Assembly (NCBI GenBank): GCA_030141605.1
Contig: JAQGDQ010000732.1
Coordinates: 41,751-105,750 of the forward strand
Length of the DNA stretch: 64,000 bases
Origin: Tubiluchus corallicola
Lineage: Eukaryota > Animalia > Priapulida
Direction: 5' to 3'
The translations under genes were made by a program, and so were the position numbers. Shown here in pieces: positions 3,053 through 60,996 of the stretch (position 1 is the first letter of the stretch; every line of letters begins with the position of its first letter). Under the pieces are notes generated by a model, which ran no database searches, was not told where the DNA came from, and saw nothing but the letters and a program-made list of their open reading frames with translations.

Positions 3053-3271
3053 CTGTCGAGGTAAAGAGCATATGATCATGTTGAAGATCTTTTTTGAATC
3101 CAGGTTCCTTTAGGCGTGTTAATAATGGACTATCATATGCTTTGAGAAAACAAAATCTAGTGAGATTAGTTTTGCACTGTCACGAAGATGCAGCTCATGA
3201 AGATGTAGAATTTCACTGAATGTCCTTGGATGTATGAAGAGAAGTCTATCATTCAGTTTCAGTGCTGTAGA
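3053..3271 (-). pseudogene. Relic of the 3' part of an exon-1-like LRR exon
   Basis: Shares exon-1-specific words (gaatttcactgaatg, cagtttcagtgctgtagat, gaagatgcagctca) but has internal deletions. The flank at ~2690-2960 resembles intron 1 (~14840-15100). Confidence 0.75.
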
Positions 3272-12945: not shown

Positions 12946-13659
12946 GTTCCAAGGTGAACGATATATGATCATGTTGAAAATCATACTTGAATCTAGGCTC
13001 CTTTAGTCGTGTTATGGGACTATCGTAAATGCCAAGAAAATTGAAATGCTTGTTATTTGAGAAATCAAAATCAACTGACGTTAGCTTTGCATTGCCTCGA
13101 ATATACAGATCTCTAAGGTATATCACTTTGCGGAATGCCCTCGAATGTATGGAGGCAAGCCTGGCATTATGAATTATTTCCAGTCGATTAAATTCAGATT
13201 CTCTGCTATGGATGCTATCCTTTTGCAGTCTCTCCAAATTTGTATACCGTATGATTAAACTAATAAGCTTATGCCCTAAAAGAAACCCTTCAGGAAGTTC
13301 AGAGTCTACATAATTATCGATGTAAAGACTTCGAGTTTTTACATCTCGTTGTTGCAATCCTTCTTGAGACCAAATTTTGGGTAGTAACCATTTAGTGTAG
13401 TTTTTACATATAATATCTTTATACTTGACAGCAAATCTCACTTCACACGCTCCTGGACTCGTAGAAAATGTTGTCGCCATTGATGTAGGTGGCGGCGTTC
13501 GTGATACAGCACAAACTACAGCGTCGTTTACGCATTCTTCGGTAAAATCACTGCGACTAGCATTAAATACTTTAAAGGGATGATAACAATCAATTACTGA
13601 TTGTCTCCAGTTGTGTGTCTTTATCCACAAAAGTTGACAGTCACAAATTAAACAATTGC
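12946..13659 (-). CDS. LRR gene exon 2 (LRRCT of previous domain + Thr linker + LRRNT + LRRs)
   Basis: Acceptor TACTTGCAG|GC, donor GAAC|GTAAGT. 714 nt, open. Starts NCLICDCQLLW (LRRCT motif). Confidence 0.85.
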
Positions 13660-15133: not shown

Positions 15134-15710
15134 CTGTCAAAGTAAACGATATATGATCATTTTGAAAATCGTATTTGAATCTAGGCTTCTTTAGTCGTGT
15201 TATTGAGCTATCGTAAATGCCAAGGAAATTGAAATGCTTGTTATTTGAGAAATCAAAATCCAGTGAAATTAGTTTTGCGTTGCCGCGAAGATGCAGCTCA
15301 CGAAGATATAGAATTTCACTGAATGCCTTTGGATGTATGAAGAGAAGCTTATCATTATCAGTTATTTCCAGTCGATTAAACTCAGTTTCAGTGCTGTAGA
15401 TACAATTTTCTCCAAGGGAACTCAAACTTGTACGCCGAACAATTAAATCAAGAAGCTTACGTCCAAAAAGAAACCCTTCAGGAAGTTCAGAGTCTATATA
15501 ATAATCAATGAATAGACTTCGAATTTTTACATCTCGTTGCTGTAAACCTTCTTGCAACCAAATTTTGGGTAGTTCCACTTTAGTGTAGTTTTTACATGCT
15601 ACATCTTTATACTTGGCAGCAAATCTCACTTCACATTCTGAAAGCATCTGGACGCAAGGATTATATAATACAATCAAAAGACATACCACGGCAAAAATAA
15701 TCAGAAACAT
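15134..15710 (-). CDS. Multi-domain LRR protein, exon 1 (signal peptide + LRRNT + ~5 LRRs)
   Basis: ATG at 15710 starts the hydrophobic MFLIIFAVVCLLIVLYNPCVQMLS, followed by C-x12-C and LxxLxIxxN repeats. The exon ends ...FTLTG at donor ACAG|GTCAGT (phase 1). Confidence 0.85.
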
Positions 15711-38245: not shown

Positions 38246-39110
38246 GGAATCCAAACACCAGTACGCTGTCAGTGAGGGCACCACGACGAAGTACACCACT
38301 TCTGCATAGAGATCTGCATAAAATAACCAACCGGAAATACACCACTTCTGCATAGAGATCTGCATAAAATAACCAACCGGCCCTTTTCAGGGCCACAAAA
38401 TTTATCCGAAAGAAAATTCTGATTTTGCAAATTCAACTGTCTCCTAATTATTAAAATTTAATTTTAAACATAAATTCAAACACAATATTTTTTATTTTTG
38501 TTTCCTTCATAACAATAATATACACATTGCATATGTCAAATAAAACTCAGTTTTAACTGTTTAGTGGTTAATATTCAATCAAATAATATCGTTTAATTTC
38601 GGTCAAAATTTCGAAAAAAAATACTCTAATTTCCGCGTAACAAGAACAATTAAGACGTGTACTCTAACGTCCGCAATGTAACAATTCACTCGTCTTTAAT
38701 CCCTGGCGAGCTATAAAAATTCTGTAGCCGCCAAATTTTCAGCACTTACCTAACGCACAGACTGTAGATGTTAATTAGATGTTCTATTTTTGGCAATTTT
38801 TGCTTCACTAGTCTAATAAACAATCACAAGACGCGTTTCACATTGACATTATTATTTTTTGGCATTCTTTATCTTTGTCTTGTCTTCGGAGGAAAAAACA
38901 GTAATTTCGAAGGTAATAAATTTCTCTTATGTTAATTTACATTAGCATTTATTATCAAAATATCTAAAACTATTTAAGTCTAAAGTTTTCTGAATAACAT
39001 GTTTGGTTTCATACATGTTATGTTATGCATAAAATGAAATGAAGAATAATTTTCCATATTGTTTGAAAAATCTTTGTTTTTTTAACAAAAATGTGTCTAT
39101 GTTACAGAAA

Positions 39111-39548
39111 ATGGAAAAATTGCAGTTGAATCCAATTGAACAGCAACAAGAACAACAACAGGAACAAGGACAGGAACAAGGACACGAACAAGGACACGAA
39201 CAAGGACAGGAACAAGGACAGGAACAAGGACAGGAACAAGGACACAAACAAGGACACGAACAAGGACAGGAACAAGGACAGGAACAGGAACAACATCAAC
39301 AACAACAACACCAACAACAAATTCTTGGACAATTCATGGCACATATGCAAACACAACTTGAACGCATTTCACGCATACAACAACAGCAACAACAACAATT
39401 ACAACAACAGCAACAACTATTACAACAACAGCAACAATTACCACAACAGCAAAATATACATCCCAGACAAAACAGATGACGATATAGACAACGCCCATAC
39501 AACAACAGACGACGCGGATCCAACTGCGTGTACAATTTCTTCAACTGA
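39111..39548 (+). pseudogene. PolyQ/EQGQ-repeat small protein, copy A (CGA>TGA stop at 39477)
   Basis: ATG just after acceptor gttacag|; 12-bp EQG[QH] repeats; colinear with intact copy B. Confidence 0.6.
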
Positions 39549-40979
39549 TGATATCATGATGATATGATGGAACCACTTCTGCTTCCGAACTTTTTTTCGA
39601 AATTTTGACCAAACAGCCTGCAGAAAAAACCTTCTAGCGGTGCCTGGTGGGACTCTCGGAAGGAGATATATGGCTCATCAGAAAGAGGAAGAACGGGGCT
39701 ACATGCCCTTAAATATAACCAACCGGCCCTTTTCAGGGCCACAAAATTTATCCGAAAGAAAATTCTGATTTGCAATTTATTAAATTAATTTAAATTAAAT
39801 TTAAAAAACAAAATTAAAACAGAATTCTTCTGACTTTTCAATATTAATATCTCTTATATTAATTTCGCTGGTATCTTAATATATATATTTATATATAAGA
39901 TTCGAGGCTACAGCCCCGACGAGGGCACCATTTGCGGCGATCTATACATCAAACGAAAGGTCTCGATCTAGAGTCGTGCCATTGAACAACTCTCCCTAAT
40001 TATTAAAATTTAAAATTCAAACAATATTTTTTATTTTTCTTTCCTTCATAACAATAATATACACATTGCATATGTCAAATAAAACTTTAACCGTTTAGTG
40101 GTTAATATTCAATCAAATAATATCGTTTTGAACGTATTGGCCATTATTTGCCTCTATATACTGTAAGCTGAGAACTCATACACAAGTTATATATAGCCAA
40201 AATGCAGTACGGCTTTGATTTGGTGCGAAAAACAAGAAAATAGTAACTGCGAAAAATGATAATAATTAACAACAATAACACCAACAACAAATTCTTGGAC
40301 AATTCATGGCACACGTGCAAACACAACTTGAACGAATTTTACTTTCAGGTTATTATAACATTACCTGCGATTGGTTGAGCAGTGGTTTCCTGTGGAAAGA
40401 ACGAACACGTGACATCGTCAGTTGTCTTTTGGTTGTCGTGGAATGCACTTCTCCTCTCTGCCTGCCGAGTGTCGTGGATTCTGTAAGGTTTGAAGCATTG
40501 TCATCAGGTTATTTTTTTTCTATTGTGTTGTTCTTCTCAGCCGTCCCTTTTGCATTCAAAGTCTTGGTTTTGTTGTTTCGTTTGTTTAAATTTCTGGAGT
40601 GTCCGTTATGCAGCGCTTACCCGCATCACCGATGGCGGACCGTAAGGCTATCTACTGGGTCGAGCCCCGGAACAATATTGAAGTATTACTCCCCATCGCC
40701 TTAATTGTTCTGAAGAACAGCTATTTTACCTTCCACAACAGAAAATCAGGTAATAAACGCCATAAGAATGGAATCAGCGGCGATTATAATAATTACATTG
40801 TCCAAATGAGAAATAAAACTTATATTATGCCTACGGAGCTACAAATAATGGACAGACTGAAAGTAACCTTGCTAACACAGCTAAAGCTTTTAATACTTTC
40901 TTTCAATCTGTTGGGAACAATATGTGTAAAAAAATTCTCAATCTTTCTATTCATATCTCAAAGGCGAAAATAGACCAAC

Positions 40980-42482
40980 TATTTTTCTTAATCCAACAGA
41001 GAATTGTGAAACCAAAAAATATATTATGAAATTAAAAAATAACAAATCCCCTGGGCATGAAAATGTTCAAACCATGTTTTATAAACTTGCAGTTGATATT
41101 ATATCACCTGTATTAACTACTATGTTTAACTGTGCTATTTCAAGTTTAATATTTCCAGATATATTAATGATTGCAAAAATTGTTCCTGTATTTAAATCTG
41201 ATGATCCTGTATTTAAATGTGATGATACTAATAATCCCTCTAATTATAGACCAATTTCTATACTATCTCCAATAACAAAAATATAATTTTTGATAGACTA
41301 AATAATTTTTTTATTAATACAAAGGTTATATCAAAACTTCAATTTGGATTTAAGAAAAACTATTCCACAGAATTAGCTACTGCCAAATTTATTGAAAACA
41401 TGCTGCACAACATTGATAACAAACTCTATACGTGTGCTATATTCCTTGACTTATCTAAAACATTTGATACTGTGCAGCACAATATACTTCTCTACAAATT
41501 ACAACATTATGGCATCAGAGGCACTGCACTTCAGCTACTAACATCTTACTTATCTAATCGTCAACAATTCACCGTCATCAATAATACCTCTTCAGATCGA
41601 GCACACTTCACCTGTGGAGTTCCCCAGGGGTCAACATTGGGCCCATTACTATTTCTTATTTATATAAATGATCTTCCTATGGCATCTAACTTTAATATGC
41701 GCATGTTTGCAGACGATACTAACCTATTCATATCTGTCACCAATCTTCTCAGTCTTGAAACTAGAACTAATGAAGAACTAATCAAAATTAGCAATTGGAT
41801 GATAGCTAACAAACTATCAGTGAATTATAACAAGACTAAGTACATGTTGATTACTAAGAAACCTGTTCTACCTATTACAATCAAAGTAAACAGTAACGGT
41901 CTTCATCAAACAACCGGCATCAAATATCATGAAATGGAATACACATATAAAAACCATTGCATATAAAGTCAATAAAAACTCCAGTATATTCAGCAAACCT
42001 AGGTACTACGTAGATACAAAAACCCTGAAGAAGATATACTATTCTCTTATACATCCCTATTTGCTTTACTGTATTCTATGTTGGGGGAGAGCAAAAAATA
42101 ACAGCCTGCGACCATTAATTACAGCCCAAAATAAAACTGTTAAATTTATTACTTTCTCAAACCGGCATGATCATGCTGTATGCTCAGTTATGCTCAGTTA
42201 AACCAATTAATAGTAAAAGACATATATACTCAACAGTTATTTAAATCTATGCATAAATTTACTAATAATGCTCTCCCCGAACTATTTGCAAATTACTTTA
42301 CTCAAACTAGAAACATACTTTCATACAACACCAGAGTGTCTCGTAGGGGTAATTACTTTCAGCCCAGATTTAACACTATAAATGGCTTAAATACATTGCA
42401 TCACCTTGGCACTAAATTGTGGAATAATTTAGATCCACTACATCATGTAAAACTGCAGTTAAACTATTTTGTAATCACCTGA
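40980..42482 (+). mobile_element. 5'-truncated, degenerate LINE reverse transcriptase (CR1/L2-group-like), copy A
   Basis: KSPG, NYRPISIL, QFGF, FLDLSKTFDTV, GVPQGSTLGPLLFLIYINDL, MFADDT; stops and frameshifts. Confidence 0.9.
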
Positions 42483-42632
42483 TTATCACCTATTAATAGG
42501 TCTTACTCCCAAACTTAACTCAATTGCTGTTTTGCACATTTATATTCTCTTCTCTACTCTAGATTACTGAAACTTATTACCCACAATACAAAAAAAACTT
42601 TTTTATGATAAATCTCTTTGTAAGGATCCTTT

Positions 42633-42790
42633 ACACACATATATGCATATGTAAATATGCATATATGTGTGTGTATAAGTATGTGTACGTATGTGTGTAT
42701 GTATATATGTGTACGTATATGTATATGTGTGTGTATGTATGTGTATGAGTTTTTATATACATCTTTGCGTGCGTGCGTGCGTGTGTGTGA
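42633..42790. repeat. Mixed (TA)/(TG)/(TGCG) microsatellite
   Basis: Directly visible; almost absent at the equivalent site (~55462-55487) in copy B. Confidence 0.9.
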
Positions 42791-42951
42791 ACCAAAACCA
42801 CATGGGTGCTGATAATGCGTTACATGGTTTACTATCCTATTCCCAAAAATAAAAATATGCTTGCTTGCCCGCTTGAATATACTTGCTATATTTATGATTA
42901 AATTTGCTTTTTTGTTTGCTTTTCATTCAATAGCTGCATTTATAGATTGAC

Positions 42952-43816
42952 GATTAATCTCGGTTTGTAGAAATTGATTTACTTGGTGTGAAATCATGTT
43001 AGAGACTAAGTTGTTTCTAATTATTACAGGACTTTCGGTTGTTACGAACGCTGAGGTCTTAAGGGTGGACTGCGATAAAAGTGGTTCACACTTTGTTGAC
43101 TTTGGCGAACGAGGAGAGAGAAGAAAAGTTGATGTGCGTGTAGAGGGAGTCGCATGCGCGCTAGATGGGAATGAATATGATGCCATAACCATTCCCTGCA
43201 CATGCGACAACGATGGAAACGCACAAAAATGGTATCTTTGCAGGTACAAGTGCCTGCAGAGAGATTCCAAAGGAGATAGAATGCTTAACCTGACTTTGGT
43301 TGTTGTCAGAAGGATGAAAGTCACTGAGAAAATGTTGTCATTCCAGATGCGTACTGCAAAAGTTGGTAGAGCGAAGAGAACAGCTATCGGAGAAGATACC
43401 AAGCAGACCGTATCTATAAATGAGTGGCAAATGTCTATCAGTGAGAGGATTGATCAAGTGTTGGAAGTAGGTTATAAGCACTGGATTATTACAGCATTGG
43501 CTATAGCAATATACAGGCTCAGACCCGGACCTCTAAGAAATGCATTGGTTGGATTCGCTTTGGTGTATGTTCTAACATACGGTTTCGGTCCGGTTGAAGC
43601 AAGAGACTATGTCTCACGTATAGAACTAGAACCAATGGCTAATGTAAGTGAGATCAAACTTGAAGATATCAAGAGTGATTCTCATTTCAAATATGGCATG
43701 CCTGATACTGAATGGTATGTTGAAGTGGATAACAAACTTAATGTTGTTATACACCTGATGAGAAAATATTGGGCTATGCTGTTGATGGTGCTGATTAAGT
43801 CATATCTAACAAAATC
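42952..43816 (+). other. Candidate endogenous viral element: flavivirus-like prM-M-E(N-terminus) fragment; ORF 42996-43841
   Basis: 865-bp insert absent from copy B. It encodes a signal peptide (…VTNA/), a 109-aa 6-Cys domain, a furin site RAKR, a 74-aa segment with two hydrophobic helices, a signalase-like VEA/, then RDYVSRIELEP…. Confidence 0.65.
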
Positions 43817-44175
43817 ACTGATGTTCATTTATTACATTTAATACTTACTGTACAAATTTTCTTCGTTTGTTTTTTTTTTGTTTTTTTTGTGCATTTATTA
43901 TTTAACTACATTTTCGTTCATTTGCTGCATTTTAGTTCACTCGCTGCATTTATGATTTAACCAGATTGCTTGCTTTTTTGTTGTTGCATTCATGACTTGT
44001 TCAGTTGTTGTTTTAATTTTTAATTGCGTTATTTGCTTGTTTTTTTCCATTGGTATAATTATAATATAACTGCCTTGCATTTTGTTTATTTGCTACACTT
44101 TAGACCTAACTACGTATTTATTCACTTAACCATGTAGTCTGTCGTGCTTTACAATATTTCTAAGTTATAATAGGG

Positions 44176-47100
44176 GTGGCTGACTCGATGACCTCCTGGT
44201 CTTTCGCCATCCTATCTCTACATACGTTACATAATTTGTTGTATTTGCGCTATAAATATTATATTAGAGATGAATAAAGCTTTGAATTGAATTGAATTTC
44301 GAATTATTAAAATTAGTAGATAGCCTAAAAAATGCAAATTTGTTGGATTTCCAGTCTTATGGCAATTCCAAACCAACAAAAACCAGGGCACTTGCAAAAG
44401 CACTATACAGTTTGGGTATTAAAGTAGGGTGGGCTTTAGATTTAATCGAAGACACAAGTCCTGCTGCCACACGAACATTGTACACAAAAGTGAAAAATTT
44501 TCAAAAACGGTTATGCGAAAAATGTCAGAAAATGCAAAAGACAAGGTTGTGGCAGCAGTCTTTAGTGCCTTGCCTTCCACAAGTAGTGGCAGTGCTAGTG
44601 AAAGTGCACATCACTACAACCAAGCAAGCCAAACTTTGAATTTAGGTACTGTAATAAAATTGGGTTGTCTCTAGAAGAAATTTTGAGTTGCGCAGGTGGA
44701 AATAAGTTTGAGAGTTCCTCACAAAGTAAATCAAAATTTTCTGTAGATCAGCTTAGTAAGGGAGTTGCTTGGGAAGTGTACACTGCTTGTGCTAAAAACA
44801 CAAAAAAATTCAAAAATGTGTTAGTTGCTTGCTGTGAACCCTGTTTGCTGTGAAGACAAAGACGTTTTGCTTCCAAAACTCAAAAATAGACTCTACCATA
44901 TGCACGTGCTAATGAAAAAAAATCCAAGAGTGCATTATGCTACTTGAAAAAGCCTTTCTTAGGCCAGGATGAACAGATAACAGCCAATATTTCAAATGCT
45001 AGTTCTAGTTCGTCTACTTATGTTACAGTCTACAAGAAGAGGACCGCATTTCTTGAAAAACAGAAAAGGGATTCAAATGCAGCTTATAATGTAGAAACAG
45101 AGAGCTTAAAAATGATATCGCTCAGCTTGAAAAGCGGTTACAAACCATTTCTTTGCTGAAAAAGAACGCACAGTGTAAGAAATTGACAAATGCAGCAAAT
45201 CTGGAACTGGTTGGTAGCACAAAGAATTTGAAAAAGAAATTGATGAGAAGCAATTCCAAAATTGGAAAACAGAAAAGCAACATTGAAAATTTGAAAAAGC
45301 AGTGGGAAGCATGTTCTGCAGAAAATCTCAACCTGACAGAAAAATTGTCTGAGTTTGAAAGTAGCAAAGAAGCGATGGAGAATGAAGTGCTTGGTAGAGA
45401 AAGTTTATTAAAACGAGCCGAGGAGAAAGAAGCAGAGTTACAATCTCACATTGATGCATTATTGAAAAGTCGTGGAAAATAATCCAAAAAAATTCTTACT
45501 GCAAGAAAAAGTTTCAGAAATTCAAACAAAAAAATTTAGTGAGTAACTCTGCAACAGTTTCTTGTGAACTGGAAAAAATAAAAAAATCATTAGCTGAGGG
45601 ACTGAAAGAAAACAGTAATTCAAAGCAAAGTATAGAAGAACTTGTAGAAGGAACATCAGATATGACAACATCGTGCATGAAGTTTACAGGAAGCTAGTAT
45701 CTTTAAATGTCGGAACAAGATCATGTGCAGAAGTTGTGAAGATAGTTTTGGAAAAGATGGCCAGTGCAAAAGTGGGGCGTTTACCAGGAAAAGATTTTGC
45801 GAGGATTGTTATACTGGAAGCTAAAATACTAGCTCAGGTACATGTACTGGGCATGCTACTACCTGAGGAAAATATTACACTGTGCAGAGCTGGGACCAGC
45901 AAAGAGGGAAAGCCCTATGGGACGTGCAATATTCAAACGAGTTAGAGAGAAGCACTCACTATTGGTACTAGGGATTTGCCCAATAAATTATGTTCCTTCA
46001 CAAGATTTTTTTACAGGTTCTTTTATGGTTGGATCAGATCCTAGTTCATTTTTAAAATAATCCTCATCTTCCAAGGTTCAAAGCGAGATTCTTAAGGAGT
46101 TACCTAACTAAAAAGTTGTCAGGCTGTACATTGCTTCACTTAGGTATACAACCTCACGCCCTGATTACACACTATTGCGTGTATGCAAAGATCAACAGGA
46201 TTCGCTATAATTATAATCGTTCTGACGTTACATATCGACTTTCTTGCTTTAACGAGTTAACCAAATTTTTTTATCGTATAATCCGTGTTAATCAATATAC
46301 GTAGTTAAAAATAAACCACTGTATTTTTTATTTCGCATCATGTAACTGCGTTTTAAAAAGATTTTATTACGTTTTCTGTGAATTTTATTTTCTGGGAAAT
46401 GGCTATTCTAGGAAATGGCTATTCTAGGAAATGAAAAATCTTTATGGGAATTTTTTTCTAGCAAAAAACTTTTCTGTGAAGTTTTTTGCCGGGGGATATT
46501 GCAAAAAATTTTGTTACATTTAGCTAAGCTTCACGTTTTAAATGTAGATGAACAAAAACAGTGGGCAGATAGATTTGTTTCAAAAATTAAGAATACAATG
46601 ACTGATCGATATTGTAAAAAAAAGTTGCAGTCTTATGCAAGAATATAAGGAAAGGGTGCTTCCAAATATTATAAAGGGATACGACAGAATCACAACAGTT
46701 GAGATTCTTGTCACAAAATGAACAACTTTTTTGTGGAATGCATTTTATTGTAGGTCTAGGCACTCAAGCCTATGCTGCCCTGAATGTTTGGGAGAAATGC
46801 ATTTTTGGTGATGCATTTGAAGATCGGGTCGGGTATGCTAAAGTAGGCTGTTTTCCTACAGCAAATGAAAGTGGAACAACTAGGCTGGTAAGGACAGTGT
46901 GCAAAGCTGTTGGATCCAGGGCATGTGAAAAGTCAGGAAGGCAAGAACATTTTGCCATTGTGGCACTATTCTAAATTCTTTTGAGCTCATTTATAATATG
47001 AATGATGTTTACCAGCAATTGCAGAATAAGTTGTGGGTCTGGGCAGTTGATTCCAGTGAGCTTTTAAATGGTAATAGTAGGTTGTTTGGAGAAATGGGAC

Positions 47101-48315
47101 AGTGGGACGGTATATCAGAAAAGCTGTTCCAAGCCAATGAATCTGGCATACAAGCAAAACAGGCCTTAGAAGTGATATGTGCAGGATTTTTGGTTGTTGT
47201 AAAATGCATGCTATCAGATCATTTGCTTAGGGGAAGCCATACAGAGTCTAGTGGACAGGATGAGTTAGCTACTGCCCCTGTTCCTAGTACTAATGTTAGT
47301 GCTGAAAGGGATTTTGGAATGTTGGATCGGATAATGAGTGAAAAGCTAATGCCACCTTTATCGCGATTGAAGGATTAATAATGTATAAGCAGAATAAGAC
47401 AGCAGATTGGTTAGAAGTCAGTGAAGATTCAGACAGAAGAACTTGTAGCCTGGCGAAAAGAAGTGCAAATAAGGAAACAACCGAAACAAATGCAACACAA
47501 GGAAAGTAATCTAGCAAAAGAATAAGTAGAACAAGAAAAGAAAGAAAAATTAAGCAGGGCATTATTCAGCATAGGTGATTTGAGAATGCAGATTCAGTAC
47601 AGGAAAGTAGTTTTAGGACAGGGTAATGTAAAAAAACTGTTTAAATTTGCCTTCAGATCAGCAAAAATTTACTGCAGAGAAATTAGCCACCAATTCAGCA
47701 AGAGTCAGGCAATGTCAGCAGTTGTTAGACAGCATCTATGGTGCAATGAAGCAAGTGCTATTGCAACAACATCAGAAACAGAACAAATCAGAAGTCAATT
47801 CTTAACTTACGGTAATCTGGAAGAGATGGCAAGTACACGAAAAAGATGCGGAATAGCAGGTGAGGGTAGTCTCCGCAGTGACATAGATCCTTGAAAATTG
47901 TTAGCTAGAAGAATGAAGCACCTCCGTTTGGTAAGGGAGAATTGTTCGATTGTGTTATAGTCAGAGTTGGAAACAGATGTGGGACAAGATATGATGGTTA
48001 CAAGAAAATTTGTCTGTGAAGATTAGCAAACTTAAGAGATGACATTGAAAAGGGTAAGCTTGTTGAGATAGAAGCAGACTTTAGTGGGGAAAAGCATACA
48101 GAATTTGTGGATTGATGAGGACAGTGGTGAAGAGATTTCGTACAGAGGTGGAGAAGTAGCAGAGTGGGATGGGAACACTGTATTCAGTGTTGGTTTTCAA
48201 GCAGATGAGGAGGAGGATGAAGATGAGGATTGAGATGAAGATTACAACACTGAAGAACACTGCAAAAATTACCTGTGCTGAAAGACTATGATCAATTTGA
48301 ACTCAGAATTCTGTA
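44176..48315 (+). pseudogene. Decayed large DDE transposase with CxxH motif and N-terminal coiled coil (hAT/P/MULE clan-like, family unassigned), copy A
   Basis: Fragments TLCR[A/D]GTSKEGK, IKNTMTDR, FCGMH, ESGTTRLVRTVCKA, TNVSAERDFG, NKTADWL and an acidic tail; many frameshifts. Confidence 0.6.
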
Positions 48316-49004
48316 AAAAAATAATAACAACGAAGATTATGTTTATGAAATGTAATTTATAAATTATATGTTTTTCACTTGTATTCTTCAATTGTATGGT
48401 TAGTGCAGTTTTTTTGCTTTAACATGTCAAAACATTGGAAAATTCTATGACTCAATTAATAACTTGACACTTAGCAGCGTCGTGTTTTTTACACTTCGGC
48501 GGATAGAAAACAGGATTAACCGTGCACCACATTACTAAGGCGTTAGAGTACACACTATAAAAAATTCTGCTGCTCAATATCTGAAACAGTACGTGTACTC
48601 TAACGTCCGCGTAACAAGAACAATTAAGAACGTGTACTCTAACGTCCGCAATGTAACAATTCAGTCGTCTTTAATCCCTGGCTAGCTATAAAAATCTCTA
48701 GCCGCTAAACTTTCAGCACTACTTCAAGATGCGTTTCACATTGGCATTATTATTTTTTGGCATTCTTTATCTTTGTCTTGTGTTCGGAGGAAAAGACAGT
48801 ATTTCGAAGGTAATAAATTTCTCTTATATTAATTTACATTAGCATTTATCAAAATATCTAAAACTATTTAAGTCTAAAGTTTTCTGAATAACATGTTTGG
48901 TTTCATACATGTTATGTTATGCATAAAATGAAATGAAGAATAATTTTCCATATTGTTTGAAAAATCTTTGTTTTTTTAACAAAAATATGTCTATGTTACA
49001 GAAA

Positions 49005-49385
49005 ATGGAAGGATTGCAGTTGAATCCAATTGAACAGCAACAAGAACAACAACAGGAACAAGGACAGGAACAAGGACAGGAACAAGGACAGGAACAAGGA
49101 CAAGAACAAGGACAGGAACAAGGACAGGAACAGGAACATCAACAACAACAACAACAAATTCTTGGACATTTCATGGCACATGTGCAAACACAACTTGAAA
49201 GCATTTCACGCATACAACAACAGCAACAACAACAATTACAACAACAGCAACAACTATTACAACAACAGCAACAATTACCACAACAGCAAAATATACATCC
49301 CATTCAAAACAGACGACGATATAGACAACGCCCATACAACAACAGACGACGCGGATCCAACTGCGTGTACAATTTCTTCAACTGA
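49005..49385 (+). CDS. PolyQ/EQGQ-repeat, Arg-rich-tail small protein (126 aa), copy B, intact
   Basis: Upstream donor gaag|gtaata (~48810) and acceptor gttacag|. Open reading frame ending RRRYRQRPYNNRRRGSNCVYNFFN. Confidence 0.45.
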   Translation: MEGLQLNPIEQQQEQQQEQGQEQGQEQGQEQGQEQGQEQGQEQEHQQQQQQILGHFMAHVQTQLESISRIQQQQQQQLQQQQQLLQQQQQLPQQQNIHPIQNRRRYRQRPYNNRRRGSNCVYNFFN

Positions 49386-49794
49386 ACTTCATATGAATTA
49401 TCGAGAACCACTTCTGCTTCCGAACATTTTTTCGAAATTTTGACCAAACAGCCTGCGGAAAAAACGTTCTAGCGGCGCCTGGTGGGACTCTCGGAAGGAG
49501 ATATATGGCTCATCAGAAAGAGGAAGAACGGGGCTACACGCCCTTAAATATAACCAACCGGCCCTTTTCAGGGCCACAAAATTTATCCGATTTGATAAGA
49601 AAATTCTCGATAAGATTCGAGGCTACAGCTCCGACGAGGGAACCATTTGCAGCGATCTATACATCAGACGAAAGGTCTCGATCTAGTGTCAGGCCATTGA
49701 TGGTTTATTTTTCGAATTGGGCCCACCGGAAGGAAGGGGGGGCGAAAAAACCCCAAAAATGGCCATTTCTCGACCGTTTTTTGCAAAACTTATA

Positions 49795-51977
49795 CAGTGG
49801 CCGCCGCTTATTATGGACACGGTTATTGTGGACAGCCGGTTATTGTGGACAACTCGCGAGGGACGGAATTTTGCCCTAATAAAATCCGCCGGTTAATATG
49901 GACAGCGAACATTCTTGGCACGTGAACCAGCCGTGCCAACCACGGCCTGCGCGCGTGATTGAAAAGAGCTTCCCGCTCTGCTGCCTGTGTGAGTCATTGC
50001 ATCAGTCAGTTCGCCGTTTGCCGTGGCCCGTGAAGGTTGGGTGCGCTCTCTGTATCACCTCGCGTAATCAACTGTGTCCAGAAGGCTGTCCTGCTTTGTC
50101 TTGGCAGTGAACTCGATTAGACTCGCATTGTGTTGTGCTTGTAATTGGTGTGTTTTGCATTGCAGTGAACAAGGCTAGGTTTGCGAAGTGCCGTTTTGAT
50201 CACCTCTCCGTAGCCTAGCTCCACTTAACTTTTGCATAACCTCATCTCCGCACGTCCTCTTCTTCTTATTCTTCTTCTTCTCTCTCAGATGGGTAAGCGA
50301 AAGGACCGTTCTGTGACTGAGAAAGTGGCACTGTTGAACAAGTTCTACGATTTGAAGAAGGAGAACCCTAGGGTCAGCTTGCGGGATGCGGCAGAAACCC
50401 TTGAAACGAAAAAGAGCGCTCTGCACTTGATGATCAAGAACGAAGCCGAACTTCGTCATGAAGCTGCTGAGGACGGTGTGCAAATCAAGCGACATCGGTG
50501 TGGAAAGGATGAAGACATCGAGGACGCTCTGCTGCAGTTCTACAACTGGGCCCACCAGCGAAACATCCCTCTTAGTGGTCCATTGTTGATGGAAAAGGCC
50601 AAGGCAATCGCTGAAGGAGCGGGTGTTGCGTTCAATCCAACCGATGGGTGGTGTTCAAGGTGGAAAAAGAGAAACGGTTTGACTTTCATCACATTGCGAG
50701 GAGAAGCAGCCGAGGCCGAGACATCAAGTGCCGACGATTTCTTGAAGAAGGAATGGCCGACTTTGTTGGGTCAGTTTGACAGGAAGGACATTTTCAACAC
50801 CGACGAAACGGGGATCTACTTCCGCGCTCTTCCTGGTTCGACGTACGTCAAACTGCGCAACAAGAAGACGGCAAAGGGCTTCAAAACTGCCAAGGACCGG
50901 ATCACTGCACTTGTCACGTGCAGCCTCGAAGGAGAGCGGCTTCCCCTCCTGATTATCGGCAAATCCAAATCGCCACGGTGCTTCAAAGGCCGTGAACTGC
51001 CGAATGACTGGATTTACAAGTTCAGCCACAATGCATGGATGACGGCAGCGATCTGGGAGAGTTTTCTGCGCGAACTCGACCTCCAGATGGGGCGGCAGCA
51101 GTGAAACATCTTGCTTTTGGCAGACAATTGCAGCGCCCATGCACAGGTTCAGGGACTGAAGAATGTGACGATTCGCTTCCTGCCACCAAACACGACTTCG
51201 GTTCTGCAACCATGTGACCAAGGGATCATCAGGGCGCTGAAGGCTCTCTTCCGGACAGCGATTCGCCGCAAAATCTTGCAGATCATGGAGGATCTCGAAG
51301 ATGAAAATTCTTCTGCACACGAAGTCGTGAAGAAGTTGAACGTGTTGCAAGCCATGGAAATGCTCTCTGCCGCGTGGAAGACGGTCAAGCCGGAGACCAT
51401 TGTGAACTGCTGGAGGAAGGGAGGCTTTGGAAATGTCGACGAGGAGGTCGACGAAGTTGCAACTGCAATTCCCGTCCCGGAAGAGGTCCCTGAAAGCGAC
51501 GCCGAGGACTTCATTGCTTGGGTGGCAGTCGATGACGACGCAGAAATTGCTGAAGAGAGGACGAGTGAAGAGATGACGCATGACCTGGTGTAACGCGTTG
51601 CTGCAGCAAAAACCGAAGTTGAAGATTCCGAAGAAGACGACGATGAGGAAGAAGCGGAGCCTGTTGTCTCGTCGAAAGAAATGAGGGCCGCCCTTGAGGT
51701 GCTGGAGCGAGGCCACAGGCAGAACGGTCTCAACATTGAGAGCTTCGAAACTGTGATAACTTCCTTCCGTTCAAGGTTGAGAGAAAAGTTTCCTGCCAAA
51801 CAAACTCGTCTGACTTCTTTTTTTCAATAAAACAGGAGACGAGTTGATACAGACAGTTTTTTGCCTTTTTTAATGAAGGGGAAGGGTCTTCATGGGTCAC
51901 TTCGCTTAATATGGACAGCCGCTTAATATGGACATACACTGCTGGCCCGAGGTGTCCACAATAAGCGGCGGCCACTG
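49795..51977 (+). mobile_element. Full-length Tigger/pogo DNA transposon (2183 bp)
   Basis: 26-bp TIRs CAGTGGCCGCCGCTTATT[A/G]TGGACAC, TA target duplication (49793-94, 51978-79) and subterminal ...TGGACA repeats. Confidence 0.95.
50289..51830 (+). pseudogene. Tigger/pogo transposase (CENP-B-type HTH + DD30D), two in-frame nonsense codons
   Basis: FNTDETG, LLADNCSAH, LQPCDQGII and a C-terminal PIP-box-like QTRLTSFF. Stops TGA at 51102 and TAA at 51591; no frameshifts. Confidence 0.92.
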
Positions 51978-52575
51978 TACCTCTTATTTCTGAAGAATGG
52001 GAACGGGCCGAGGGTGGTACTGGGTATGGATAGATAGCCCGTTCAGCGGTAGGTGTAGTAGGCACATTTAGAATTCGCGAGAGGGCCATGGCGCCCCGCA
52101 ACGGGCGTTTTCCCGGAACCAACTCGCGATTTTTTCGAAATTTTGACCAAACAGCCTGCGGGAAAAACGTTCTAGCGTCGCCCGGTGGGACTCTTGGAAG
52201 GAGCTTTATAGCTCTTTACAAAGAGGAAGGACGGGGCTACACGATGATGTGGGTTATATTTTAGGGCAGGTCCACCGAGAGGAGTATCAACGAGTTAATT
52301 ATGTGTTCTATTTTCCGCAATTTTTCAATAATTTTCGCTTAGAAAACTGCGACGCATTCCATTGTGCTGACGTCATCCATTGTACTCTGTCTATAAGTTT
52401 AACTCAGTAAAAAGCTGCTGCTGGCTTTGCGTTAGATAAACAGACATACAGTAGGCATGATGTGATGCGCTACAGGCTTTGCGTTAGGTAAGTAGGCAGG
52501 ATGTTACGGGCTTTGTGTTATAAATGAGGACTAGGTAGAATGTTCGCGTATTATTGATTACACGTGTATTTATAT

Positions 52576-52603
52576 GCAAAATCTTTTGCGGGTCCTTTGC
52601 TAG
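52576..52603 (+). mobile_element. Helitron-like 3' terminus
   Basis: Hairpin gcaaaa-tc-ttttgc(ggg) followed a few nt later by CTAG|T. Confidence 0.4.
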
Positions 52604-53769
52604 TCCTTAATAATTAATCTTGGTCTTAAGATTATAATAATTAACACGAATGCCTAACTCGTTAGCTTTATAATCATATACTGGGTGAGTCAGAAAGTCT
52701 AGCTGCATCATAGCTTAGTGATCATGCCACTGAGGCAGCCAACTCAGACTCAGCAAATCACTAGAAAACAAGTTTAATAAAAATTTGACACCATTATACT
52801 TGATATTATGTGATTCGGTGAGAGCATATGTGCATACATTATTTTCACAGCTTGTACACAATTTTAATGTTTGTGTCCAGAATAGGATAATTTGTGCTTG
52901 CCCAAGCAGGAGCTTGCCGAAACAGCATCCAAACAGGAGTACTGGAGCAGAAGTAATTTGAACTCTATCAAATTCAAACAGCTGTTTTTACTTGTAATTT
53001 GTGTTCGCAGTATACCACAGCAGTGATTGTAATGCAGTGTAGAGGCAAACTACTAGCTTAACCCTTAATATTGAGCTGAACAGTGAAAGGTGCATTATAC
53101 AGTTCTATTCATAGGCACCAGGCCAGTCAGTCTAAAGGTAATGTTATGACTTCCACTTTAAACTAGGAAGCCCATGGCATTACCTGCGATTGGTTGAGCA
53201 GTGGTTTCCTGTGGAAAGAACGAACACGTGACATCGTCAGTTGTCTTTTGGTTGTCGTGGAATGCACTTCTCCTCTCTGCCTGCCGAGTGTCGTGGATTC
53301 TGTAAGGTTTGAAGCATTGTCATCAGGTTATTTTTTTTCTACTGTGTTGTTCTTCTCAGCTGTCCCTTTTGAATTCTAAGTTTTGGTTTTGTTGTTTCAT
53401 TTGTTTAAATTTCTGGAGTGTCCGTTATGCAGCGCTTACCCGCATCACCGATGGCGGACCGTAAGGTTATCTACCGGGTCGAACCCCGGAACAATATCGT
53501 AGTATTACTCCCCTCGCCTTAATTGTTCTGAAGAAGAACAGCTATTTTACCTTTGACAACAGAAAATTAGCTAATAAACGCCATAAGAATGGAATCAGCG
53601 GCGATTATAATAATTACATTGTCAAAATGAGAAATAAAACTTATATTATGCCTTGTTAACCTTGTTAAAACAGCTAATGCTTTTAATACTTTCTTTCAAT
53701 CTGTTGGGAACAATATGTGTAAAGATTTTTCTCAATCTTTCTATTCATATCTCAAAGGCGAAAATAGAC

Positions 53770-55310
53770 TAACTATTTTCTTAATCCAATAGAGAATTGT
53801 GAAACCAAAAAATATATTATGAAATTAAAAAATAAGAAACCCCTGGGCATGAAAATGTTCAAACCATGTTTTATAAACTTGCAGTTGATATTATATCACC
53901 TGTATTAACTACTATGTTTAACTGTGCTATTTCAAGTTTAATATTTCCAGATATATTAATGATTGTAAAATTTTTTCCTGTATTTAAATCTGATGATCCT
54001 GTATTTAAATGTGATGATACTAATAATCCCTCTAATTATAGACCAATTTCTATACTATCTCCAATAACAAAAATATAATTTTTGATAGACTAAATAATTT
54101 TTTCATTAATACAAAGGCTATATCAAAATTTCAATTTGGATTTAGGAAAAACTATTCCACAGAGTTAGCTACTGCCAAATTTATTGAAAACATGCTGCAC
54201 AACATTGATAACAAACTCTATACGTGTGCTATATTCCTTGACTTATCTAAAACATTTGATACTGTACAGCACAATATACTTCTCTACAAATTACAACATT
54301 ATGGCGTCAGAGGCACTGCACTTCAGCTACTAACATCTTACTTATCTAATCGTCAACAATTCACCGTCATCAATAATACCTCTTCAGATTGAGCACACTT
54401 CACCTGTGGAGTTCCCCAGGGGTCAACAAGGGCCCATTACTATTGCTTATTTATATAAATGATCTTCCTATGGCATCTAACTTTAACATGCGCATGTTTG
54501 CAGACGATACTAGCCTATTCATATCTGACACCAATCTTCTCAGTCTTGAAACTAGAACTAATGAAGAACTAATCAAAATTAGCAATTGGATGATAGCTAA
54601 CAAACTATCAGTGAATTATAACAAGTCTAAGTACATGTTGATTACTAAGAAACCTGTTCTACTTATTACAATCAAAATAAACAGTAACGTTCTTCATCAA
54701 ACAACCGGCATCAAATATCTAGGACTACATTTAGACGTTGACATGAAATGGAATACACATATAAAAACCATTGCATATAAAGTCAATAAAAACTCCAGTA
54801 TATTCAGCAAACCTAGGTACTACGTAGATACAAAAACCCTGAAGAAGATATACTATTCTCTTATACATCCCTATTTGCTTTACTGTATTCTATGTTGGGG
54901 GAGAGCAAAAAATAACAGACAGCCTGCGACCGTTAATTACAGCCCAAAATAAAACTGTTAAATTTATTACTTTCTTAAACCGGCATGATCATGCTGATAT
55001 GCTCAGTTATGCTCAGTTAAACCAAGTAAAAGTAAAAGACATATATACTCAACAGTTATTTAAATTTATGCGTAAATTTACTAATAATGCTCTCCCCGAA
55101 CTACTTTAATCAGTTGCAAATTACTTTACTCAAACTAGAAACATACTTTCATACAACACCAGAGCGTCTCGTAGGGGTAATTACTTTCAGCCCAGATTTA
55201 ACACTATAAATGGCTTAAATACATTGCATCACCTTGGCACTAAATTGTGGAATAATTTAGATCCACTACATCATGTAAAACTGCAGTTAAACTATTTCGT
55301 AATCACCTGA
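53770..55310 (+). mobile_element. Degenerate LINE reverse transcriptase, copy B
   Basis: Same motifs plus IKYLGLHLD; lesions partly differ from copy A. Confidence 0.9.
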
Positions 55311-56048
55311 TTATCAACTATTAATAGGTCTTACTCCCAAACTTAACTCAATTGCTGTTTTGCACATTTATATTCTCTTCTCTACTCTAGATTACTGAAA
55401 CTTATTACCCACAATACAAAAAAAACTTTTTTATGATAAATCTCTTTGTAAGGATCCTTTACACACATATATGCATATGTAAATATCCACATGGGTGCTG
55501 ATAATGCGTTACATGGTTTACTATCCTATTCCCGAAAATAAAAATATGCTTGCTTGCCCGCTTGAATATACTGGCTATATTTACGATTAAATTTGCTTTT
55601 TTTTGTTTGCTTTTCATTCAATAGCTGCATTTATAGATTGACTGCATTGCTTGCTTTTTGTGTTAATTTGTCACATTATGATTACTGATGCTCATTTATT
55701 ACATTTAATACTTACTGCACAAATTTTCTTCGTTTAGTTTTTTTTTTGTTTTTTTTGTGCATTTATTATTTAACTACATTTTCGTTCATTTGCTGCATTT
55801 TAGTTCACTCGCTGCATTTATGATTTAACCAGATTGCTTGCTTTTTTGTTTTGTTGTTGCATTCATGACTTGTTCAGTTGTTGTTTTAATTTTTAATTGC
55901 ATCATTTACTTGCTTTTTTTTCATTGGTATAATTATAATATAACTGCTTTGCATTTTGTTTATTCGCTACACTTTAGACCTAACTACGTATTTATTCACA
56001 TAACCATGTAGTCTGTCGTGCTTTACAATATTTCTAAGTTATATAGGG

Positions 56049-59000
56049 GTGGCTGACTCGATGACCTCCTGGTCTTTCGCCACCCCATCTCTACATACGT
56101 TACATAATTTGTTGTATTTGCGCTATAAATATTATATTAGAGATGAATTGAATTTCGAATTATTAAAATTAGTAGATAGCCTAGAAAATGCAAATTTGTT
56201 GGATTTCCTGTCTTTTGGCAATTCCAAACCAACAAAAACCAGGGCACTTGCAAAAGCACTATACAGTTTGGGTATTAAAGTAGGGTGGGCTTTAGATTTA
56301 ATCGAAGACACAAGTCCTGCTGCCACACGAACATTGTACAAAAAAGTGAAAAATTTTCGAAAAATGTCAGAAAATGCAAAAGACAAGGTTGTGGCAGCAG
56401 TCTTTATGCCTTGCCTTCCACAAATAGTGGCAGTGCTAGTGGAAGTGCATCAGATTTTCAGTGCACATCACTACAGCCAAGCAAGCCAAACTTTGAATCT
56501 AGGTACTGCAATAAAATTGGGTTGTCTGTAGAAGAAATTTTTGAGTTGTGCAGGTGGAAATAAGTTTGAGAGTTCCTCACAAAGTAAATCAAAATTTTCT
56601 GTAGATCAGCTTAGTAAGGGAGTTGCTTGGGAAGTGTACACTGCTTGTGCTAAAAACACAAAAAAATTCAAAAATGTGTTAGTTGCTTGCTGTGAACCCT
56701 GTTTGCTGTGAAGAGAAAGATGTTTCGCTTCCAAAACTCAAAAATAGACTCTACCATATGCACGTGCTAATGAAAAAAAAAATCCAAGGCCGCATTATGC
56801 TACTTGAAAAAGCCTTTCTTAGGCCAGGATGAACAGATAACAGCCAATATTTCAAATGCTAGTTCTAGTTCGTCTACTTATGTTACAGTCTACAAGAAGA
56901 GGACCGCATTTCTTGAAAAACAGAAAAGGGATTCAAATGCAGCTTATAATGTAGAAACAGAGAGCTTAAAAAATGATATCGCTCAGCTTGAAAAGAGGTT
57001 AGAAGCCATTTCTTTGCTGAAAAAGAATGCACAGTGCAAGAAATTGACAAATGCAGCAAATCTGAAACTGGGTGGTAGCAAAAAGAATTTGAAAAGGAAA
57101 TTGATGAGAAGAAATTCCAAAATTGGAAAACAAAAAAGCATCATTGAAGATTTGAAGAAGCAGTGGGAAGCATGTTTTGCAGAAAATCTCAACCTGAAAG
57201 AAAAATTGTCTGAGTTTGAAAGTAGCAAAGAAGCGATGGAGAATAAAGCGCTTGATAGAGAAACTTTATTAAAACGAGCCGAGGAGAAAGAAGCAGAGTT
57301 ACAGTCTCACATTGATGCATTATTGAAAAGTCGTGAAAAACAATACAAAAAAAAATTCTTAGTGCACGAAAAAGTTTCAGAAATTACAACAAAAAAATTT
57401 AGTGAGTAACTCTGCAACAGTTTCTTGTGAACTGGAAAAAATAAAAAAAATCATTAGCTGAGGTATTGAGAGAAAACGGCAATTTAAAGCAAAGTATAGA
57501 AGAACTTGTAGAAGGAACATCAGATATGACAACATCGTGCATGAAGTTTACCAGAAGCTAGTATCTTTAAATATCGGAACAAGATCATGTGCTGAAGTTG
57601 TGAAGATAGTTTTGGAAAAGATGGCCAGTGAAAAAGTGGGGCGTTTACCAGGAAAATATTTTGTGAGGATTGTTATGCTGGAAGCTAAAATACTAGCTCA
57701 GGTACATGTACTGGGCATGCTACTAACTGAGGAAAATATTACACTGTGCAGAGATGGGACCAGCAAAGAGGGAAAGCACTATGGGACGTGCAATATTCAA
57801 ACGAGTCAGGGAGAAGCACTAACTATTGCTACTAGGGATTTGCCCAATAAATTATGTTCCTTCACAAAAAATTTTTTACAGGTTCTTTTATGGTAGGATC
57901 AGATCCTAGTTCATTTTTAAAATAATCCTCATCTTCCAAGGTCCAAAGCGAAATTCTTAAGGAGTTACCTAACTAAAAAGTTGTCAGGCTGGACATTACT
58001 TCACTTAGGTATACAACCTCACGCCCTGATTACACACTATTTGCATGTATGCAAAGATCAACATGATTCGCTATAATTATAATCGTTCTGACGTTACATA
58101 TCGACTTTCTTGCTTTAACGAGTTAACCAAATTTTTTTATCGTATAATCCGTACTAATCAATATACGTAGTTAAAAATAAACCTCTGTATTTTTTATTTT
58201 GCATCATGTAACTGCGTTTTAAAAAGATTTTATTACGTTTTCTGTGAATTTTATTTTCTGGGAAATGACAGTTCTGGGAAATGGCTATTCTAGGAAATGA
58301 AAAATCTTTATGGGAATTTTTTCTAGCAAAAAACTTTTCTGTGAAGTTTTTTTGCCGGGGGATATTGCAAAAAATTTTGTTACATTTAGCTAAGCTTCAC
58401 GTTTTAAATGTAGATGAACAAAAACAGCGGGCAGATAGATTTGTTTCAAAAATTAAGAATACAATGACTCATCGATATTGTAAAAAAAAGTTGCAGTCTT
58501 GTGCAAGAATATAAGGAAAGGGTGCTTCCAAATATTATAAAGGGATACGACAGAATCACAACAGTTGAGAGTCTTGTCACAAAATGGACAACTTTTTTGT
58601 GGAATGCATTTTATTGTAGATCTGGGCACTCAAGCCTATGCTGCCCTGAATGTTTGGGAGAAATGCATTTTTGGTGAAGATCGGGTCGGGTGTGCTAAAG
58701 TAGGCTGTTTTCCTACAGCAAATGAAAGTGGAACAATTAGGCTGGTAAGGACAGTGTGCAAAGCTGTTGGATCCAGGGCATGTGAAAAGTCAGGAAGGCA
58801 AGAACATTTTGCCATTGTGGCACTATTCTAAATTCTTTTGAGCTCATTTATAATATGAATGATGTTTACCAGCAATTGCAGAATAAGTTGTGAGACTGGG
58901 CAGTTGATTCCAGTGGCTTTTAAATGGTAATGCTAGGTTGTTTGGAGAAATGGGACAGTGGGACGGTATATCAGAAAAGCTGTTCCAAGAAAATGAATCT

Positions 59001-60245
59001 GGTATGCAAGCAAAGCAGGCCTTAGAAGTGATATGTGCATGATTTTTGGTTGTTGTAAAATGCATGCTATCAGATCATTTGCTTAGGGGAAGCCATACAG
59101 AGTCTAGTGTACAGGATGAGTTAGCTACTGCCCCTGTTCCTAGTACTAATGTTAGTGCTGAAAGGGATTTTGGAACGTTGGATCGGATAGTGAGAGAAAA
59201 GCTAAATGCCACCTTTATCGCGATTCAAGGATTAATAATGTATAAGCAGAATAAGACAGCAGATTGGTTAGAAGTCAGTGAAGATTCAGAGAGAAGAACT
59301 TGTAGCCTGGCGAAAAGAAGTGCAAATAAGGAAACAACCGAAACAAATGCAACACAAGGAAAGTAATCTAGCAAAAGAATAAGTAGAACAAGAAAAGAAA
59401 GAAAAATTAAGCAGGGCATTATTCAGCATAGGTGATTATGAGATAGTGAAGAAGCTGGTGGAATAAATTTTTCGAGGTACAGTTCTCCAAGTACCAAGCT
59501 TTGTGATTTGAGAATGCAGATTCAGTACAGGAAAGTAGTTTTAGGACAGGGTAATGTAAAAAAACTGTTTAAATTTGCCTTCAGATCAGCAAAAATTTAC
59601 TGCAGAGAAATTAGCCACCAATTCAGCAAGAGTCAGGCAATGTCAGCAGTTGTTAGACAGCATCTATGGTAACAATGAAGCAAGTGCTATTGCAACAACA
59701 TCAGAAACAGAACAAATCAGAAGTCAATTCTTAACTTACGGTAATCTGGAAGAGATGGCAAGTACACGAAAAAGATGCGGAATAGCAGGCGAGGGTAGTC
59801 TCCGCAGTGACATAGATCCTTGAAAATTGTTAGCTAGAAGAATGAAGCACCTCCGTTTGGTAAGGGAGAATTGTTCGATTGTGTTATAGTCAGAGTTGGA
59901 AACAGATGTGGGACAAGATATGATGGTTACAAGAAAATTTGTCTGTGAAGATTAGCAAACTTAAGAGATGACATTGAAAAGGGTAAGCTTGTTGAGATAG
60001 AAGCAGACTTTAGTGGGGAAAAGCATACAGAATTTGTGGATTGATGAGGACAGTGGTGAAGAGATTTCGTACAGAGGTGGAGAAGTAGCAGAGTGGGATG
60101 GGAACACTGTATTCAGTGTTGGTTTTCAAGCAGATGAGGAGGAGGATGAAGATGAGGATTGAGATGAAGATTACAACACTGAAGAACACTGCAAAAATTA
60201 CCTGTGCTGAAAGACTATGATCAATTTGAACTCAGAATTCTGTAA
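56049..60245 (+). pseudogene. Decayed DDE transposase, copy B
   Basis: Retains TLCRDGTSKEGKHY, FCGMH and SAERDFG..KLNA..GLIMYKQNKTADWL. Confidence 0.6.
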
Positions 60246-60996
60246 AAAAACAATAGCAACGAAGATTTAAGTGAAGACTATGAAGACTGCTGTGAAAAAC
60301 TGCTTCCTAGAGGATTATGATAACCTGGAAGTCCTGTAAAAATATTAATATAATAACAAAACAAGTATTTAAATGACAACAATGAAGAATTTTCATCTTT
60401 TGGAAGATTACTGTAAATCTGAACTTTGAGCTCTGTAAAAAACAAGTGCAATTAATAGTCATCAGTTGTCAGCTTTGACCTACCAACAGTAATGGAACCA
60501 CAATATGGAGTTCTCCCTGAAGAAATGAACTCAGCATTCAGAACCATAATGGGATTCATGGGCGGCAATTTTCCCTCCCAGCCCAAGTAGGACCTCTCAA
60601 ACCAGTAAATGATTGGCTAGCTGAATTCAATAAGTGTAAATAGAATAAACTCTATCCTACAAAAAAAGTATTGCATCTGAGATCAGCATTTTAGCCGATG
60701 CAGAACTAATACATATGAGTGATGAAATGAGCAATCCAAATGATGTTGATCTGGGATTCAACACACAATGACCAATATTTTCAGGAATGCTACAAAGTGA
60801 TGAGGAAAACGAGATAGTAGTGAAAAGAGTGGAACGTGAACACCAACAGTTGCCACAACAAAAGACTTCAAAAAATTGACATTAAGACAAAGAAATCTGT
60901 TGGAAGAGAGCATTTCTGAATTAAAACATTTAACTGAGCAACAAAAATCACGTCTTTACAGGATGGAGCAATCATTGGTTGAAACTATAAAATAAA

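Follow-up and report, generated by a model that had tools for sequence, protein, structure and literature searches.

An 865-bp insert in the genome of the priapulid Tubiluchus corallicola is a real endogenous viral element (EVE) of a very divergent flavi-like lineage. The identification of its coding part as a viral prM-M module can be held with high confidence. The fuller account, in which an RNA virus that entered by break repair left the insert as a fossil in the germline, with a prM chaperone and a possible second M-like protein preserved, is rather likely. The insert lies in one copy (A) of a tandem duplication, and the matching empty site is preserved in the other copy (B). Both copies fall within the window, i.e., the whole 64,000-nucleotide (64-kb) stretch of DNA that was analysed (Table 1).

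Table 1. Features of the viral insert and of the surrounding host locus, in window positions.
Feature	Position	Strand	Basis or remark
Copy A of the ~10-kb tandem duplication	38622..48338	+	self-BLAST
Degenerate non-LTR retrotransposon around the insert	40817..44296	+	co-oriented with the viral ORF
Endogenous viral element, whole insert	42952..43816	+	replaces 41 bp of host repeat; covered by DNA-run contigs
Leader of 44 nt, each of the three frames interrupted by a stop, probably non-coding in the virus	42952..42995	+	
ATG and predicted 19-aa signal peptide	42996..43052	+	hydropathy; aligns with the Met-initiated N-terminus of P0003
pr-like domain, 109 aa, six Cys, NLT sequon	43053..43379	+	furin motif RAKR at 43368-43379
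M-like protein, aa 129-202, 74 aa	43380..43601	+	amphipathic helix, two predicted membrane helices, signalase-like VEA 200-202
72-aa tail, Cys-free, NVS 216 sequon, cut by the right junction	43602..43816	+	not alignable to the E of P0003
Possible second M-like helix and membrane segment	43710..43793	+	EW, 17 residues, K/R-H/Y-W; in register with M
Copy B of the tandem duplication, without the viral insert, with a pogo/Tigger-type transposon	48596..60267	+	self-BLAST
Empty site in copy B, 41 bp	55643..55683	+	same start appears as loose ends in contigs of X1, X2, and X4

The left edge of the 865-bp insert is ...ATAGATTGAC and the right edge is ACTGATG.... The 865 bp in copy A stand against 41 different bp in copy B, and neither edge shares a letter. 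The GC content of the insert is 41%, compared with 32% and 27% in the flanks. No direct repeat of the target-site duplication (TSD) type was found at the junctions; the longest one nearby measures 7 nt and is located in host DNA, 9-10 nt away from each junction. An A-run or poly(A) was likewise not found at the junctions. Thus, the TSD and the 3' poly(A) of a LINE-made (TPRT) retrocopy are both absent, and the preliminary description of an 865-bp for 41-bp exchange lacking these marks is borne out. The 64-kb window contains no second copy of the insert. Viral sequence joined to host DNA and an empty site are present in the window and in contigs from DNA runs.

A single frame is open from the ATG at 42996 to a stop at 43839-43841 in host DNA, yielding 281 aa, the last seven of which are host-derived. 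At the insert's composition, a run of 274 open codons would arise by chance with a probability of about 1e-9. The signal peptide, six Cys, NLT sequon, RAKR site, M-like segment, and VEA that had been read from the sequence beforehand all lie at their proposed places in this one frame.

The identity of the encoded protein was established through a single relative. An exhaustive homology search of 1,835,955,588 cluster representatives returned only one match, P0003, a single-member Logan protein of 351 aa on a 2,387-nt contig. Residues 6-202 of the insert protein align with residues 1-196 of P0003 across the signal, pr, and M (92/198 identical, 46%). Directly after its AEA, P0003 runs on into flavivirus E: residues 199-319 match PF00869 (E 4.9e-8, 33 bits, cut-off 27), and the fusion-loop motif RGWGNGC is present. 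Against the PDB, P0003 matched 121 sequences at E<=1 (best 3e-9), and the 60 listed are all flavivirus envelope or polyprotein chains. P0003 covers all of prM and, from a divergent flavivirus E, the initial 155 aa. It would represent an undescribed flavi-like virus or an EVE, and its viral nature rests on the E domain. Since aa 20-202 of the insert are homologous to a protein that precedes flavivirus E, they occupy the prM position. The prM-M identity is thus supported by homology and position, and the viral origin and the pr/furin/M reading first proposed from motifs hold up, with P0003 carrying the same module directly before flavivirus E. As far as sequence can tell, the insert protein would work like prM, although it is not filed as Orthoflavivirus. 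The source virus is likely related to orthoflavivirus-like flavivirids.

The pr-like domains of the insert protein and P0003 are both 109 aa long and are identical at 53 of 108 aligned columns. All six Cys (26, 54, 68, 70, 82, and 86) align with Cys of P0003, and six conserved Cys are a feature of orthoflavivirus pr. The NLT 98 sequon is absent in P0003, and the furin site RAKR (aa 125-128) has RNKR as its counterpart. An R-X-K/R-R furin motif is described between pr and M (PMC10770923). The M-like proteins measure 74 aa and 73 aa, with 32 of 73 columns identical. In TBEV, the corresponding parts are given as pr 1-88, RTRR, and M 89-162, i.e., 74 aa (PMC11221509). An M of about 75 aa with a peripheral helix and two membrane helices is matched, at the level of prediction, by the 74-aa segment. 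In a two-row model, helices are predicted at 129-142, 144-154, and 160-178, after beta strands, and the amphipathic helix is also indicated by the hydrophobic moment.

Structural comparison added little to this picture. The pr domain is predicted as all-beta in a low-confidence model (pLDDT about 59; 53 in a second model). With such models, Foldseek returned nothing at E<=0.001, and VIA gave a best Z of 3.2 for pr, with no flavivirus pr among the 50 matches listed; at this model confidence, such blanks carry no information about the pr fold. TBEV prM ranked 7 of 48161 chains (Z 5.3, rmsd 3.7, 50 aligned) and Powassan M ranked 15 (Z 5.0, rmsd 7.5, 71 aligned), both within helical noise. Profile resources gave a similar result. 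No Pfam prM/M match was obtained for the insert protein, its parts, or P0003, and no prM was matched in the PDB by sequence or by a two-row profile. Weak PDB-sequence matches to antibody V domains, T4 gp27, and dehydroquinase were rejected as noise. NCBIfam had no match, the ESM Atlas no usable match for either protein, and viral and metagenome contigs no relative. Word-indexed protein searches found none of 631 candidates related to the insert protein, and none of 7991 among proteins of 616-2000 aa, a range below full polyproteins. A further search of this kind recovered only P0003 itself among 7997.

The target of the insertion is a degenerate retrotransposon. Its RT frame (41250-41966) matches Pfam RVT_1 (E 1.2e-26) and is followed by an AT-rich 3' region, a hairpin at 44173-44212 (z only -1.17), AATAAA, and (TTGAA)3 at 44282-44296. 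The insert site lies downstream of the RT frame and upstream of the hairpin, AATAAA, and (TTGAA)3. This tail is presumably a CR1/L2-type LINE 3' UTR. No clear TSD was found for the LINE, apart from one AT-rich 13-mer. Contigs from four of the six listed sequencing runs (X1, X2, X4, and X5) were examined. Contig depth in X1 is 12 over the insert and up to 1056 over the flank, and in X2 it is 151-173 and 9909. These depths are taken only as a sign of a multicopy flank, not as copy number. The start of the empty site appears as loose ends in five, five, and three contigs of X1, X2, and X4, respectively. The deeper flanks and the loose ends together indicate that the target is a multicopy repeat and that the empty state is ancestral. 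At 42870 and 42882, most other copies of the repeat read T, but A and B both have C. These shared private letters place both flanks, including the empty site of copy B, in the same local lineage, and the insertion is therefore later than the A/B split. The proposal that the insertion followed the duplication is thereby upheld.

A route of entry that fits the junctions is break-repair capture, in which cDNA made by a host RT was patched into a DNA break; this reading is considered probable. Once the tandem duplication had taken place, cDNA that a retroelement RT had copied from viral RNA would have replaced 41 bp of the LINE-type 3' UTR in copy A. What the sequence shows directly is the exchange of 41 bp of target, neither a TSD nor poly(A), and a viral sense strand that runs in the same direction as the LINE. 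The main rival for the mechanism is a double template switch by the RT of the LINE, from LINE RNA to the RNA of the virus and back again, followed by recombination of the hybrid cDNA into copy A. The position of the insert in the LINE-type 3' region of a multicopy repeat, on the same strand as the RT frame and lacking TSD and poly(A), is compatible with such switching. However, co-orientation has a 50% chance of arising anyway, and the private A/B letters are kept 70-80 nt to the left and a few nt to the right of the insert, so any cDNA tract from another member of the family must be very short. Template switching is accordingly regarded as unlikely. In the host, the element is probably a passenger or a source of small RNA.

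In classical flavivirids, the capsid supplies the prM signal within one polyprotein. The insert does not have this Orthoflavivirus layout, in which prM is internal in the polyprotein and its signal comes from the capsid anchor. An in-frame stop lies seven codons upstream of the ATG at 42996, and the 274 codons downstream are intact. P0003 likewise begins with Met at its signal peptide. These features favour, to a moderate degree, the view that the ORF used its own start codon in the virus. Alternatively, the leader stops may reflect decay after insertion, and the Met start of P0003 may be an effect of gene calling. The P0003 gene occupies 1,053 of the 2,387 nt of its contig, and it is either a separately started ORF or itself a broken fossil. 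The closed leader, the second sequon (NVS 216), and the multicopy nature of the target had been overlooked in the preliminary description. Word searches of an open-access library of papers returned no report of a Met-initiated prM or a duplicated M. Relevant sequences may be listed in the supplements of Mifsud and Bamford.

An own start codon would also suit a carrier outside Flaviviridae, or a retroelement env, that acquired a free-standing flavivirus-type prM-E gene. The leader closed in three frames and the Met-initiated signal peptides of both proteins point in this direction, given that classical flavivirids are described as using a single polyprotein (PMC11760431, PMC12942856). The insert, however, contains no gag, pol, or LTR piece, and such a carrier is judged improbable. 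A polymerase of the NS3/NS5 type is also absent from the insert.

The segment after VEA was initially taken to be the start of E. This part of the reading is not sustained, as the tail has no Cys, scores at chance against the E of P0003, and resembles M instead. The local score against the E of P0003 is reached by 327 of 1000 shuffles, and in tblastn this E is unmatched by any frame of the insert. Alternative frames of the tail contain stops and show no E likeness, and neither the PDB nor Pfam yields a match to the tail. The first 27 residues of P0003's E contain two Cys, versus none in the 72-aa tail. E directly after M, as in the Orthoflavivirus layout, is thus not seen in the insert. Several details could be accounted for if the tail were the N-terminal part of a highly divergent E (prM-M-E), for example in a virus that swapped E at the M/E boundary. 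The tail begins exactly at the signalase-like site, where E begins in P0003. Its RDYVS faintly resembles RDFV near the start of a known E (7l30), and its polar first half could form strands. However, E is usually better conserved than prM, and the tail ends in a hydrophobic helix in register with M. On this evidence, a divergent E has a low probability.

The likeness of the tail to M was assessed in several ways. The EW, the amphipathic helix, the K/R-H/Y-W, and the hydrophobic run stand in exact register with both M proteins. Against the prM profile, the score of the tail is reached by 9 (global) and 12 (local) of 20000 shuffles with BLOSUM62, 6 and 12 of 20000 with BLOSUM45, and 61 and 82 of 20000 with BLOSUM80. 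Against P0003 alone, the numbers are 238, 126, and 1807 of 20000. When Trp is capped, 706 of 20000 shuffles reach the score of the tail; the likeness to M is largely due to two Trp. The reversed tail scores 16.5 versus 40 for the tail, and none of 189 control windows reaches the tail-M score. An HMM comparison of the tail and M gave an E of 1.4e-4, valid for a single comparison; the tail-M comparison was made post hoc, prompted by a weak BLAST piece (E 0.49). Taken together, the evidence lends moderate support to a putative second M-like module. At the DNA level, M and the tail are identical at only 39 of 105 positions; any duplication of M is therefore old and viral and was not made at insertion. 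An imperfect palindrome at 43725-43754 also lies within the M-like tail (fold z -2.0, 10/200 shuffles) and is probably due to chance.

The tail could instead derive from elsewhere in the viral RNA, or from another RNA, through an RT template switch that produced a chimeric cDNA. The homology to P0003 ends abruptly at aa 202, and the GC content drops there from 0.43-0.45 to 0.35. RTs do make virus-retroelement chimeras, as reviewed for LCMV/IAP (PMC3205384). Yet a template switch would have to hit the signalase site exactly and keep the frame for 72 codons, and the M-like register of the tail would become a coincidence. A chimeric origin is thus quite improbable.

With a second M-like module as the preferred reading of the tail, what is known of prM suggests a scheme for the virus. 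Translation would start at the ORF's own ATG, and the signal peptide would direct the product into the ER. Signalase would cut after aa 19 and aa 202, and furin after RAKR. The pr part would shield the fusion loop of E, and M would be double-anchored. After M would come not E but another small membrane partner of the M-like kind.

The age of the insertion can be bounded through the duplication. Of six segments compared between copies A and B, five have a substitution divergence of 1.95-3.89% and one has 0.52%. The insertion had been called datable on these grounds. The divergence does give an upper bound, but not the date itself, as it varies from 0.5 to 3.9% by segment; the bound is further blurred by possible conversion. 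The low-divergence segment, 47575-48338 versus 59503-60267, may reflect gene conversion or a younger event. A and B could also be two haplotypes assembled in tandem, with the insert as a heterozygous polymorphism. The copies differ by the presence or absence of mobile inserts, and a divergence of 0.5-3.9% lies within the heterozygosity of polymorphic invertebrates. However, the window contains no N gap, and the A-to-B join is continuous sequence, which leaves the haplotype explanation with a small probability.

The read-derived contigs bear on whether the insert is physically present in the host. An X1 contig spans 42922-43860+ with no substitutions and one gap, extending more than 44 nt beyond the right junction. 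At the left junction, it reaches 30 flank nt, one letter fewer than the bridging criterion requires, and a stop there is expected where a 31-mer graph branches. In X2, two contigs share the outer ends of the X1 contig. X4, from another study, contains 42979-43160 (182 inner bases) in identical form. X5, a small run with the same species label, gave no matching contigs, which is no proof of absence. No RNA run was among those listed as containing the insert, and this says nothing about expression. X1 and X2 come from one sample, which may be the assembly's own, and differ from the window and from each other at 43078, 43145, 43175, and 43630 (a 1-nt loss each, and two X2 substitutions). These differences within the insert may reflect allelic variation, additional copies, or errors in the contigs. 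A chimeric assembly or contamination by a virus would be compatible with a single sample behind the best-covering runs (X1-X3), possibly the assembly source, and with the empty result of X5. However, contigs of two DNA-type runs continue from the flank into the insert, and the 182 identical bases occur in a second study, making this explanation extremely improbable.

Several known systems offer points of comparison. The module shares with orthoflavivirus(-like) prM (TBEV, Binjari, and Tamana-bat-like) the signal, a Cys-rich, beta-predicted pr, the furin site, and a 74-aa M with an amphipathic helix, two membrane helices, and a signalase-like end. Its homolog P0003 has this module directly before a fusion-loop-bearing E. 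The insert differs in having no detectable sequence match to these proteins, a pr of 109 aa versus 88 in TBEV, its own ATG in place of the capsid anchor, and a Cys-free, possibly M-like segment in place of E. According to Mifsud et al. (2024), orthoflaviviruses and some of their close relatives are the only viruses in which prM has been detected (PMC11410658). In the same source, Bole tick virus 4 (BTV4) is described as having a pair of small membrane-anchored proteins encoded ahead of E, of which the first carries a furin site; these partners are not homologous to prM and occur only in that subclade. Compared by description, the first partner in the insert is prM-like, whereas the second would be a duplicate of M.

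Bamford et al. (2022) described flavivirid EVEs at 374 loci in 36 of 1075 species, and their main text uses "prM" once, in the introduction (PMC9752770). Those elements, as far as they are described there, are also intronless flavi-like genome fragments in animal DNA whose age is bounded via duplicated copies. The present insert differs in consisting of prM without a detectable NS or E part and in the survival of the empty site next door. With such prM-only content, searches with known polyproteins would likely miss it. EBLN elements and LCMV/IAP hybrids, as reviewed in PMC3205384, are further cases of RNA-virus sequence copied to DNA, probably by a host retroelement RT. The LINE-1-made EBLN carry a TSD and poly(A), whereas the insert has neither, and the exchange of 41 bp within a LINE-type 3' region suggests entry by break repair or through a template switch.

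The window contains additional repeats and gene-like features. A tandem array at 249-15782 (-) has a period of about 2.8 kb and some seven Cys-rich LRR-like exons that are 78-92% alike (LRR_8 E 0.0027, below cut-off), with an inverted fragment at 17102-17192; it looks like an expanding receptor-type gene family. At 49793-51979, in copy B only, lies a pogo/Tigger-type DNA transposon with 28-nt terminal inverted repeats (96% complementary) and with HTH_Tnp_Tc5 and DDE_1 encoded in the same frame, which is interrupted by one stop codon (51102-51104). Both copies carry a degenerate transposase-like gene (44286-48300 and 56130-60200) with DGT, CxxH-like, and ERDF motifs and no Pfam match, which we take to be hAT-like. 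A simple-repeat expansion at 42700-42797, just left of the repeat in copy A, is absent from copy B. Gln-rich QEQG repeat frames stand at the starts of A and B (39033-39479 and 48927-49385) and differ in unit number.

Flavivirid EVEs in themselves are already well known. The intact empty site with private flank variants offers a clean case of RNA-virus cDNA entering a repeat without TSD or poly(A). Together, the insert and P0003 extend prM to a lineage missed by Pfam. Tentatively, they may represent an undescribed flavivirus-envelope lineage with a free-standing prM(-E) ORF that has its own start, on a segment or subgenomic RNA, and with a duplicated M before E in one member. If true, the host would have preserved, as a recent fossil, a flavivirus assembly module arranged in a new way. 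Should the own start and the second M-like module prove real, the chaperone module would have been uncoupled from the capsid and duplicated, and such uncoupling and duplication would bear on the evolution of class II fusion partners.
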